From a virus, in the UHGV virus genome UHGV-1486778: a DNA stretch of 27,885 bases, one strand, 5' to 3'. Position 1 is the first letter of the stretch. Each line of letters opens with the position of its first letter. Positions 23,736 through 27,885 of the stretch are shown here, in pieces. The position numbers and the translations under genes are program-made. The notes under the pieces were generated by a model, which made no database searches, was not told the DNA's origin, and saw only the letters and a program-made list of their open reading frames with translations.

Positions 23736-24780
23736 ATTTCAGCGCCCGACGCTGGCAGAAAATATCAGTATGCTCCGTAACGATTTATTCGCCAGGCTGG
23801 ACGTCAGCGACACGCTCCGGCGCATGGATGAAGACGTGCGGGCAAAGGTGTATGCGGCGGCGCTGCATACGGTTTACGGGTACATCGATTATCTGGCAAT
23901 GAATATGCTGCCTGACCTGTGCGATGAGTCCTGGCTGGCGCGACATGCTGCGATGAAACGGTGTCCGCGCAAGGGGGCCACGGCTGCCAGCGGGTATATG
24001 CGCTGGGAAGGTGTCAGCGATGGCCTGAAGGTGACTGCCGGGAGCGTGATTCAGCGCGATGACCTGGTTCAGTACACGGCAACTGCCGATGCAACCAGCT
24101 CCGGTGGTGTCCTGCGCGTGCCGATCGCCTGCTCAAGTGCAGGCGCGGTCGGTAACGCTGACGACGGTACGTCATTAATCCTGGTCACGCCGGTGAATGG
24201 TCTGCCGTCTTCCGGCGTGGCAGATACCCTGACAGGTGGATTTGATACTGAAGAGCTGGAAACGTGGCGCGCCCGCGTCATTGAGCGGTATTACTGGACG
24301 CCTCAGGGCGGGGCTGACGGGGACTATGTCGTCTGGGCTAAAGAAGTGCCCGGCATTACCCGCGCATGGACATACCGTCACTGGATGGGAACGGGAACTG
24401 TCGGTGTGATGATTGCCAGCAGTGACCTGATTAATCCCATTCCGGAAGAATCAACGGAAACGGCGGAAAGACAAAATAGGGAGCCACTGGCCCCGGTGGC
24501 AGGCTCTGATTTGTATGTGTTCAGGCCGGTGGCACATACGGTGGATTTTCATATCCGCGTGACGCCGGACACACCGGAAATACGGGCTGCCATCACCGCG
24601 GAGTTGCGTTCGTTCCTGCTGCGTGATGGTTATCCGCAGGGAGAACTGAAGGTATCGCGTATCAGTGAGGCGATTTCCGGTGCGAACGGGGAATACAGCC
24701 ATCAGTTGCTTGCACCGGCAGACAATATCTCCATTGCAAAAAATGAACTGGCGGTTCTGGGGACGATTTCATGGACGTGA
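23722..24780 (+). CDS. Baseplate J-like protein (Mu gp47-like)
   Basis: 352 aa. Position and size typical of baseplate J homologues. Confidence 0.7.
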
Positions 24781-25355
24781 CAAACGATGATTACATCCGT
24801 CTGTTGTCGGCACTGTTGCCCCCCGGTCCGGCGTGGTCAGCCAGCGATCCGGCGATTGCCGGTGCGGCACCGTCATTAACCCGTGTTCATCAGCGTGCGG
24901 ATGCCCTGATGCGGGAGCTGGATCCGCGCACCACCACTGAACTGATAAACCGCTGGGAGCGTCTGTGCGGTCTGCCGGATGAATGTATTCCCGCAGGGAC
25001 ACAGACCCTTCGTCAGCGTCAGCAACGGCTGGATGCGAAGGTTAACCTGGCGGGCAGCATCAACGAGAATTTTTATCTTGCACAGCTTGCTGCCCTGGGC
25101 AGACCAGATGCCAACATCACGCGATACGACAAAAGCACGTTCACCTGCTCATCGGCCTGTACTGACGCGGTGAATGCGCCGGAATGGCGGTATTACTGGC
25201 AGGTCAACATGCCAGCTGCCACCAACACCACCTGGATGACATGTGGCGATCCCTGTGATTCCGCACTGCGTATCTGGGGCGACACCGTTGTCGAGTGTGT
25301 GCTTAACAAACTCTGCCCGTCGCATACCTACGTAATTTTTAAATATCCGGAGTAA
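24771..25355 (+). CDS. Mu gp48-like / YmfQ-like (DUF2313) tail protein
   Basis: 194 aa, immediately upstream of the tail fibre gene, as in e14 and Mu. Confidence 0.65.
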
Positions 25356-25358
25356 TCC

Positions 25359-26291
25359 ATGCATCGTATAGACACGAAAACCGCGCAGAAGGATAAGTTC
25401 GGCGCGGGTAAGAACGGTTTTACCCGTGGTAACCCCCAGACCTGCACGCCTGCCACCGATCTGGATGATGACTACTTTGACATGTTGCAGGAGGAGCTTT
25501 GCAGCGTTGTGGAGGCGTCCGGTGCCAGCTTGGATAAGGGGCGGCACGACCAGCTACTTACCGCGCTTCGCGCGCTGCTGTTAAGCCGCAAGAATCCGTT
25601 TGGCGATATCAAATCGGATGGCACGGTGAAAACGGCTCTCGAAAACCTTGGTTTGGGAGATGGCTCGGGGCGTTACAGCAAAACTGTCGTTTTTTCATCG
25701 TCGGGTTCATATACGTGGCCAGCTGACGTAAAACGAATTGACGTTATTCTGACTGCGGCGGGCGGCGGTGGCGGTGGATGTAACGCGGAGAACGCAAATC
25801 AGACATTTTCAGGGGCTGGCGGAGGAGCCGGAGGTACTGTTTTTGCCACTATTTATGCGACAGACAACGATGCCGGGCCAGGGACCTATACAGTGACAAT
25901 TGGTAGCGGTGGTAGTGGTGCCAATGGGCCAGGGTCTGGAAATAATGGCGGTAATAGTTCGTTCATGACATTAACTGCGCTCGGCGGCCAGGGTGGGCAA
26001 TGGGGCGGCGCTACAAATACCGCTGGCGGGCGCGGTGGCTCAGGCTCTGGCGGTTATAAAACAGAACAAGGCGGAGACGGTTCAGACGGACAGGCGGGCC
26101 AGGCGCTATTAGTAGGCAATGGGGCATCGAGCTATTGGGGTGGCGGCGGCCGCGCTGGGCAACTGAGCGGTAATCCTGGAGTTTGCTCTGGCTCCGGCGG
26201 CGGGGGTGCATACGATAATAGCTATTCACACACGTCAGGACGTGGCGGGCACGGAGCTAATGGCGTGCTGGTAATTCGGGAGTACATGTAA
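25359..26291 (+). CDS. Tail fibre protein: conserved N-terminal domain plus glycine-rich C-terminal domain
   Basis: N-terminus [26 protein letters not shown] is typical of Mu/e14/P2-type side tail fibres. The C-terminal roughly 200 aa are dominated by GG/GS runs. Followed by a tail fibre assembly gene. Confidence 0.7.
25636..25661. other. Candidate Hin/Gin/Pin-type crossover-site-like imperfect palindrome inside the tail fibre gene
   Basis: ctctcGAAAACC tt GGTTTgggagat: a 12-bp perfect palindrome with a 2-bp core tt and partly symmetric flanks. Resembles hix/gix sites (AAACC-NN-GGTTT core) and lies at the junction of the conserved N-domain and the variable C-domain. Confidence 0.35.
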
Positions 26292-26696
26292 ATGAATGAT
26301 ATCTATGCAGTTGTTGATAATAACGTTGTTATTAATGTCATTATCTGGGACGGAATTTCTGAATGGAAACCAGAGGCTGGTAATTTAGTTCCGTTAAACG
26401 GCGATGCTGGCATCGGTTGGTCATATTCAGACGGAGTATTTACCGCGCCACCTCCCCCAGAACGCTCTCACAACGCGTTAGTTGCGGAGGCTGAGCTGCA
26501 GAAATCAGCACTACTGACCGTAGCAAATAACACAATAGCACCGCTGCAGGATGCCGTTGATTTGGAAATGGCGACAGACGATGAACAGGCGTTACTGCTG
26601 GCGTGGAAAAAATACAGGGTACTGCTGAACCGTGTTGATACCTCAGCGGCACCCGAAATAGAGTGGCCTACGCAACCGGGGGAGCGGGCCAGTTGA
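26292..26696 (+). CDS. Tail fibre assembly protein (Tfa family)
   Basis: 134 aa with the C-terminal Tfa signature [19 protein letters not shown]. Immediately follows the fibre gene. Confidence 0.75.
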
Positions 26697-26817
26697 TATC
26701 AGGCGCAGCGTCAGCATCAACTGCTGTCACTGCGTCGATGTAGTCGAGTACCGCATTCAGCCGCGTTTTTTCATCATCAGTCAGTTTGCGGCCTGCATTT
26801 CTCCGTTGACATCTTTG
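26668..26817 (-). pseudogene. Relic 3' end of a second, inverted tail fibre assembly gene (tfa')
   Basis: The minus-strand frame encodes ...[38 protein letters not shown]-stop, with no start codon (49 codons, bounded by a stop). It shares the Tfa C-terminal AAP(D/E)I(N/E)WP signature and overlaps the 3' end of the + strand tfa by 29 nt. Confidence 0.55.
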
Positions 26818-27039
26818 TTATATGGTACAACTGCGCAGAGGCCTGTCTCTTCAATTGTGCCAGTTGAATACTACGATACAACGCTCGGCCTTCCTGTTTG
26901 GTGGAACATAACCACATCTACGAGGAAAAGAGCTTACGGTACTAATACTTAGACTTTAAATTTATTTTCGTTTATTAATCATTGAAGTAAAACAAATTAT
27001 TAGGCGAAAATGTAGCGAATTTATGTACTTATACATGTT

Positions 27040-27082
27040 ACCCTGAAGGAAAATTCTTTTAATAAACCTTCTCCTTCAGGGT
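27040..27082. terminator. Hairpin between the convergent tail-fibre and gtr-like transcription units (candidate bidirectional terminator)
   Basis: Inverted repeat accctgaagga (27040-27050) / tccttcagggt (27072-27082) in an AT-rich context, lying 7 nt downstream of the minus-strand gene stop at 27090-27092. Confidence 0.5.
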
Positions 27083-27089
27083 AAAATAA

Positions 27090-27885
27090 TTATTTGACGT
27101 AAATGTGGTTTCTGTATTTGACAAAAATCACATCACACACACTTTCAATATCTTCAGGTTGACCATAAATTTTCTTCACAATATTCAATTGTTCTTTATT
27201 CTCAAGAATAAAGAAATTATTTCCTTTGTTATACCATTCGCTATTTGTAAGCCAGTTGTCTCTTTTAATTTCATTGTTATCAAAAAGTATATTTGCTATT
27301 TTTATGTCTCCATTCACACCAACAGAGTTGGTAAATGCAAAAGGGGCATATCCATAATTCACTTTGTGCTCGTTGATTTTTTCTCTAATACATGATATCT
27401 GATTGTATCTATTATCAGTGGAGCCATTAATATTTATTGTTTTAATTCCTGATATGATGCCCAAAAAAGCTATTAATAAAATAATGCTTTTTTTATTAAA
27501 TTTAGATCTTGACAAAAGAATTACTGCCATAATGAAGACGGGAACAAGGTATCTTATTGTCCATATATTTCTTGGGAGGTTACTACCAATATAAGCAGAT
27601 GTCATGATTAAAATAGACAATGACAAACATATATCAATAACGCTTCTGTTTTTAAAAAGATTTCTGAAAGTGAAGTAAATTAATGCAACAACACCAGCAA
27701 AGCGTATTGCTTTAGATAATAGATGCAGTGATGGTGTTATCTGCTCACCAAATATGTCTGCATTAAAAAACAATAAAGTTCCACTTACTGCGGTATTTAT
27801 ATTAACTAAAATATTGTCATACTCAACAATCTTTACATCTGTTAGTCCTGGCAATGTAAAGCTTCCAAGGTTTAAAAACAAAAAA
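27090..27885 (-). CDS. Polytopic membrane protein, 3' part only (5' end beyond the window edge); candidate serotype-specific O-antigen glucosyltransferase (Gtr type-specific / GtrC-like)
   Basis: Very AT-rich gene convergent with the tail genes. Several TM helices followed by a hydrophilic C-terminal domain of about 130 aa. The frame is still open at the window edge. Its position after the tail fibre genes matches gtr cassettes in SfV-like and CPS-53-like prophages. Confidence 0.45.
   Translation of the reverse strand, partial: FLFLNLGSFTLPGLTDVKIVEYDNILVNINTAVSGTLLFFNADIFGEQITPSLHLLSKAIRFAGVVALIYFTFRNLFKNRSVIDICLSLSILIMTSAYIGSNLPRNIWTIRYLVPVFIMAVILLSRSKFNKKSIILLIAFLGIISGIKTININGSTDNRYNQISCIREKINEHKVNYGYAPFAFTNSVGVNGDIKIANILFDNNEIKRDNWLTNSEWYNKGNNFFILENKEQLNIVKKIYGQPEDIESVCDVIFVKYRNHIYVK

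Follow-up and report, generated by a model that had tools for sequence, protein, structure and literature searches.

A Pin/Cin-type crossover sequence at the constant/variable joint of a glycine-rich tail-fibre gene, probable relic of an invertible switch in an SfV-like prophage

A chimeric tail-fibre gene, intact over its full length, occupies positions 25359–26291 (plus strand) of the 27,885-nt stretch of viral DNA analysed here (UHGV virus genome UHGV-1486778), the whole of which is referred to as the window. The encoded protein of 310 aa is composed of a constant part, a linker, and a glycine-rich tip. The linker is encoded by a 26-bp palindrome which, judged by its sequence, is a genuine crossover site of the gix/cix/pix (Pin/Cin) type, namely the left site of the e14 P segment. 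The switch of the window is very probably a locked fossil, i.e., the left part of an invertible segment whose right part was lost, since partner site, invertase, and enhancer are all missing from the window.

The site extends from 25636 to 25661 and reads ctctcGAAAACCttGGTTTgggagat, with the half-sites CTCTCGAAAACC (25636–25647) and GGTTTGGGAGAT (25650–25661) on either side of a central TT (25648–25649). It is translated in frame as ALENLGLGD, residues 93–101 of the fibre, which includes the linker ENLGLGD. This peptide, the glycine-rich strings behind it, and the 26-bp sequence are all present as described in an earlier note made from the DNA alone. The exact core AAACCTTGGTTT occurs a single time in the window. 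In its build the site agrees with its class: it is an imperfect palindrome of 26 bp in which a 2-bp core separates two half-sites of 12 bp, it matches the family consensus (gix/cix/pix consensus as quoted in PMC4134206), and it lies in frame where the constant and variable parts of a tail-fibre gene meet. The resemblance to invertase crossover sites, also remarked upon in the earlier note, is borne out by the alignments, with 25 of 26 positions identical to the left site (IRL) of e14 stfP, CTCTCGAAAACC TT GGTTTGGGAGAA, 19 of 26 to each of the annotated P1 sites cixL and cixR, and 17 of 26 to the annotated gixL of Mu. The near-complete match to the e14 site at the same codons shows that the window site is homologous to it and not merely similar. 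For the e14 P segment (1797 bp), inversion at the repeat TTGGTTTGGGAGAAGG was shown by sequencing (PMC12529663) and was likewise seen by read mapping (PMC4272514); the e14 left site, and with it the window site, overlaps this experimentally mapped repeat. Read-level inversion is also documented for the 26-bp site class in E. coli prophages (PMC4134206).

That the palindrome arose by chance, or that it represents an RNA or terminator hairpin, is hardly conceivable. About one short palindrome of the site type is indeed expected per window (0.87 with at most one mismatch), but the in-frame homology to e14 and a score of 18/20 in the scoring of two 12-bp half-sites, compared to 16 for the best of 200 Markov shuffles, rule out a chance origin. 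An RNA hairpin was rejected as well, the RNA fold at the site having a z-score of +1.0, which is no better than that of shuffles.

Related sites are found in the C segment of P1 (Cin) and the G segment of Mu (Gin), which share with the window the 26-bp site with its AAACC NN GGTTT core at the Sc/Sv joint as well as the N/Y-LGL motif encoded there. Both cixL and cixR of P1 have the TT core of the window site, and the P1 record places the crossover at this position, whereas the core in Mu is TC. In contrast to the window, P1 and Mu each retain the full set of two sites, invertase, and enhancer, and their constant parts differ from that of the window.

The constant part (Sc; 25359–25661, plus strand), for which a role in baseplate attachment is presumed, has an N-terminus of the e14/SfV StfP type. 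Homology to e14, with 96.9% nucleotide identity, spans positions 24757–25663 and ends there, and SfV, SfI, SfII, and SfIV are 95–97% identical to the window as far as 25660. Of the earlier designation of this N-terminus as Mu/e14-type, the e14 half stands and is to be extended to SfV, whereas the likeness to Mu S is distant (weak match to the Mu S N-terminus, PDB 5yvq, E 0.007). Besides the constant part (~97% nucleotide identity) and the left site at the same codons, the e14 P segment (pinE, stfP/stfE, tfaP/tfaE) has in common with the window an upstream ymfQ gene and convergent chaperone genes overlapping by 29 bp. Unlike e14, the window has a Gly_rich_2 tip in place of the StfP tip and retains little of tfa'; pinE, the right site, and the alternative tip are missing from it, and a gtr O-antigen module lies downstream. 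The SfV group (SfV, SfI, SfII, and SfIV) shares the Mu-like baseplate genes, the same constant part up to the site, and the occurrence of a single site with no invertase, followed by gtr genes. It differs in that its variable tip is small and not glycine-rich, and the annotated region of SfV has no tfa' remnant.

Proteins of 310 aa which are 97–100% identical to the window fibre occur by the thousands in E. coli. At codon 29 (25443–25445), a single G-to-T difference gives the window fibre Cys in place of the Gly of e14 StfP and most relatives. In RefSeq, PGAP cuts the intact 310-codon ORF into an "stfP pseudogene, missing C-terminus" and a "glycine-rich domain-containing protein", which is an annotation error; the latter product begins at the TTG at 25653, within the 26-bp site. 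In many other records the window-type fibre protein is named "carbohydrate kinase", which looks like a misnomer.

The location of the site at the constant/variable junction, as claimed in the earlier note, was recovered from both sides. The homology to SfV, SfI, SfII, and SfIV ends at 25660 and that to e14 at 25663, and the homology of the glycine-rich cassette (tip and chaperone) starts at 25639 in L031, a P2-like contig, and at 25645 in L043, a P1-like contig, and in the locus L028. These three carry mutually unrelated constant regions ahead of the cassette. Of 1868 complete E. coli genomes with a match to 25200–26796, only 66 run on through the glycine-rich part; among the sampled remainder, the match stops at 25660–25670. 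The left half of the window site is identical to the e14 site (12/12), and the right half, which ends in T rather than A, is identical to the site of the L031 and L043 cassettes (12/12); the window site is therefore a hybrid. In protein searches, two glycine-rich alleles were found fused to at least five types of constant region, in all cases at (N/Y)LGLGD. The same tip and chaperone are located on fibres of the e14/SfV type, the 606R2 type, the L028 type, and the P1-like type, as well as beside an invertase in the P2-like element. We infer that the cassette was first joined to the constant part of the window by exchange within the site, the exchange point being confined only to ~17 bp (25645–25661).

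Homologous recombination in a shared 16-bp core or in an 80-bp adapter could be another origin of this fusion. The junction would then be kept only as a fibre linker (NLGLGD) and a patch of homology, and general or phage-encoded homologous recombination would have made the fusion with no invertase chemistry involved, which we consider rather unlikely. It is consistent with this alternative that the 16 bp ACC TT GGTTTGGGAGA are identical in all partners, that the same tips are borne by at least five constant-region types, and that other mosaic joints are located upstream of the site, in the 606R2-type constant part and, in other fibres, at positions 25584 and 25604, which are 30–80 bp away from it. 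From the latter two joints it follows that homologous exchange in the 80-bp adapter also happens. On the other hand, the breakpoints in ~1800 genomes pile up at the site itself, and the cassette is found silent beside invertase genes and flanked by inverted sites (L031, L036, and L043). Moreover, this alternative bears on the origin of the fusion only, and not on the identity of the site.

The adapter (25584–25663, plus strand) ends in the site and is common to otherwise unrelated fibre genes. Of 5426 E. coli genomes, 1770 contain it, in genes which bear several different fibre annotations, and it is 96–97% conserved in fibre genes of the 606R2 type; phage vB_EcoM-606R2 and its relatives match the window fibre in these 80 bp only. 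It thus represents a second mosaic joint, upstream of the 26-bp site.

The variable part (25662–26291, plus strand) is predicted to be a receptor-binding tip. Glycine accounts for 30% of residues 102–310, compared to 10% of residues 1–101. The earlier description of this part as low-complexity glycine-rich repeats has to be replaced by that of a defined domain, since residues 114–307 match Pfam Gly_rich_2 (PF21722) with E 5e-19 and 69.6 bits, the gathering cut-off being 24.3. A profile of four alleles matches the fibre of cyanophage Pam3 end to end (E 0.0085). An AF2 model of the whole fibre, made from a shallow alignment, was unusable (pLDDT 37), and a profile search for greater alignment depth gave mostly near-identical proteins. 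Restricted to the tip and based on three allele groups, the model was of moderate quality (pLDDT 67, pTM 0.70, residues 150–196 below 50). In a Foldseek search with this tip model, the Pam3 fibre (7ypx_A) ranked top with E 6.5e-8 and TM 0.64, and the Bxb1 tail tip and the glycine-rich domain of ALK were also found. As far as the model can be relied upon, the tip would adopt a receptor-binding fold of the TNF-like plus glycine-rich (PGII lattice) type, the structural match extending over the whole domain.

Immediately downstream, the cognate tail-fibre assembly chaperone gene tfa (26292–26696, plus strand; Pfam Caudo_TAP, E 4.6e-33) forms the second member of the cassette and accompanies the glycine-rich tip in L031, L043, and L028 as well. 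In Pam3, a tip with TNF-like and glycine-rich parts was proposed as the receptor binder, and it needs a Tfa-like chaperone (PMC9608196), which agrees with the presence of tfa at this place. The fibre gp24 of Pam3 thus resembles the window tip in both parts of the fold and in its Tfa-like chaperone gp25 encoded downstream, whereas the sequence identity is 23–26% only, the N-terminal attachment domain differs, and no inversion switch is described. A scan of species-representative genomes for the glycine-rich tip gave no confirmed match.

Inside complete invertible segments, the same cassette of tip and tfa, 97% identical, is located in L031 and L043. In L031, a contig which comes from IMG/VR and has a P2-like baseplate, the site TTTTCAAAAACG TT GGTTTGGGAGAT directly adjoins the gene of a PinE homologue (84% identity). 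Behind this invertase-side site, the same glycine-rich tip (97% aa identity) and tfa are situated in the silent position, and a second site, in inverted orientation, is located within the expressed fibre gene. Both alternative tips of L031 (5975–7874) belong to the glycine-rich class; they are 32% identical to each other, and just one of them is followed by tfa.

In case of L043, lyd and darA genes, a protein with Resolvase and HTH_7 domains, and two inverted sites occur in a P1-like context, and the window's own cassette resides in the invertible segment. Here the glycine-rich tip is in the expressed position, and a full-length convergent tfa', a gp53-like alternative tip, and the cin-proximal site are present. 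Window positions 25637–26796 are 97.4% identical to positions 277–1436 of this contig. A search of PLSDB for the L043 arrangement revealed no plasmid with at least 80% coverage. A related glycine-rich tip lies silent beside a recombinase in L036, an E. coli chromosome.

Two further observations were made on invertible regions of this kind. The E. coli strains 0H15–0H26 (H113, H117–H121) are near-identical isolates from a single lineage with differing counts of "phage tail protein" features over the same P2-like invertible region; these annotation differences may reflect differing segment orientations between the isolates. In phage vB_EcoM-689R6 (L008, 4360–6641), an e14-type constant part with a truncated stfE-type tip is directly followed by mcrA and a DNA invertase gene on the opposite strand. 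Neither orientation of the e14 segment would give this gene order, and the record is partial and contains Ns.

The 3' 2.9 kb of the window (25000–27885) are 100% identical to eight E. coli genomes, e.g., NZ_CP145099.1. In genomes of this type, the 3' part of the window forms the terminal part of an SfV-like prophage whose baseplate is of the Mu type, and the gene order is baseplate genes, ymfQ, fibre, tfa, a reverse tfa fragment, a GtrC-like gene, gtrB, gtrA, intS, and tRNA-Arg. The ymfQ gene (24771–25355, plus strand), which encodes a Mu gp48-like baseplate wedge protein (Pfam Phage_Mu_Gp48, E 9.5e-26; annotated as YmfQ family in an identical genome), is situated directly 5' of the fibre gene. 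On the other side of the cassette, the reverse fragment is a remnant of a convergent second chaperone gene, tfa' (26668–26805, minus strand), of which the last 45 codons and the stop are left. As in case of tfaP/tfaE of e14, it overlaps tfa by 29 bp. It is 87% identical to residues 153–197 of the L043 Tfa' and 67% identical to the C-terminus of e14 TfaE. Stop codons interrupt the sequence upstream of the remnant, and PGAP labels it "tail fiber assembly protein, missing N-terminus".

Past the deletion joint follows a spacer (26806–26940) which is common to all relatives, whichever O-antigen module comes next. Homology of L002, L003, L028, and L040 to the window reaches ~26940–26950 and then diverges, and the joint together with the next 90–140 bp (to ~26894–26950) is kept in each of the 25 SfV-type relatives whose sequence extends this far. 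The loci with a different constant part (L028 and L040–L042) share the deletion joint of the window and this adjoining stretch as well; beyond it, different O-antigen modules follow. A joint shared across relatives with differing modules points to one old truncation.

In the window, the O-antigen modification module starts with a gene for a GtrC-like membrane protein (27090–27885, minus strand; 29.5% GC), which occupies the place where V' (the second variable domain), the distal site, and the invertase are expected. No more than 14 of 5426 complete E. coli genomes contain this gene, the window part of which has no Pfam match. By its position it corresponds to a serotype-specific GtrC, and by its scarcity it represents a rare allele for O-antigen modification. 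Just past its stop codon, a 19-nt inverted repeat (27035–27087; 89% complementary, 15-nt loop) looks like a terminator.

The working switch implied at this locus by the earlier note finds no support in the window, in which the distal half of the segment is deleted. A complete switch of the G/C/P/Min type comprises a second inverted site, an invertase with its enhancer, and two mirror cassettes. Four pattern and repeat searches and a half-site scan revealed no partner site in the window, tblastn with PinE over the window gave exclusively matches with E above 3, and no notable match to the P1 enhancer or the 5' end of pinE was present in the window. A second cassette of tip and chaperone is likewise absent from the window, the 45 codons of tfa' being all that remains of it. 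With a chimeric query composed of the flipped tip and pinE, a flipped cassette beside a pinE-like gene was found in 0 of 5426 complete E. coli genomes, and only collinear copies of the window cassette were seen among the matching E. coli genomes. As to the check for an invertase elsewhere in the genome, each of the eight window-identical genomes contains two further pinE-like places according to blastn and none according to megablast; therefore, an invertase acting in trans is probably present in these genomes. A distant or cryptic partner site may be located outside the window.

It is improbable, in our estimate, that the site is still active in the sense that Pin-family invertases from elsewhere in the chromosome pair it with a quasi-site or with the site carried by another prophage. 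In this case, the predicted outcome would be large inversions, deletions, or the capture of cassettes, all as rare events. Apart from the two extra pinE-like places, this is suggested by the intact state of the window site, both half-sites of which occur in complete systems, and by the behaviour of related elements: PinE, PinQ, and PinR each invert the e14 segment in trans (PMC12529663), a prophage of EC958 with a truncated invertase still flips, and Cin was reported to use quasi-sites (PMC4134206). However, no partner site exists within the 27.9-kb window, the window-identical genomes have a single copy of the Sc-site region at the megablast level, and no rearranged variants of the window locus were seen among 5426 genomes. 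Pairing in trans is further disfavoured since invertases of the Pin/Cin type depend on an enhancer bound by Fis and on sites in cis which are inverted relative to each other within one supercoiled domain.

While the identity of the site, the anatomy of the locus, the truncation, and the occurrence of the cassette in complete switches are shown by the results above, we infer, for the preferred reading, the locked fossil, the following order of events in the decay of the switch. In the ancestral segment, strand exchange by a serine invertase would have taken place at the TT in the centre of each of two 26-bp sites in inverted orientation. By flipping of a ~2-kb segment, a single constant N-terminus would have been provided, in frame, with one or the other of two receptor-binding tips, both of which had a chaperone of their own. 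This SfV-like prophage has the glycine-rich tip and tfa in the expressed position. A deletion with one end inside tfa' would have taken the remainder of this gene together with the alternative tip, the distal site, the invertase, and the enhancer; the serotype-conversion module now stands behind the deletion joint. As a result, the fibre would be permanently "Gly-rich ON", and the site, which also encodes the linker ENLGLGD, would persist as an orphan.

One may also speculate, as an unlikely possibility, that the orphan site is a live docking point which the Pin-family invertases of co-resident prophages occasionally pair with their own sites. If true, cassettes of tip and chaperone would move between unrelated phages, or large chromosome inversions would occur; this could explain why the same two glycine-rich tips are shared by five or more unrelated constant regions, with the 26-bp sequence forming the joint in every case.

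The locus belongs to a known kind of system, and the current understanding of invertase systems is unchanged by the finding, the value of which is mainly that of a clear case of cassette shuffling at the site. In practical terms, it draws attention to annotations which break an intact gene into a pseudogene and a fragment or name its product a carbohydrate kinase, and the site indicates a position at which engineered fibres could be given other tips. For the biology of these phages, the locus, if read as above, shows the decay of a host-range switch into a fixed fibre, and it provides a clean example of one 26-bp site serving as a universal joint for receptor-binding cassettes.
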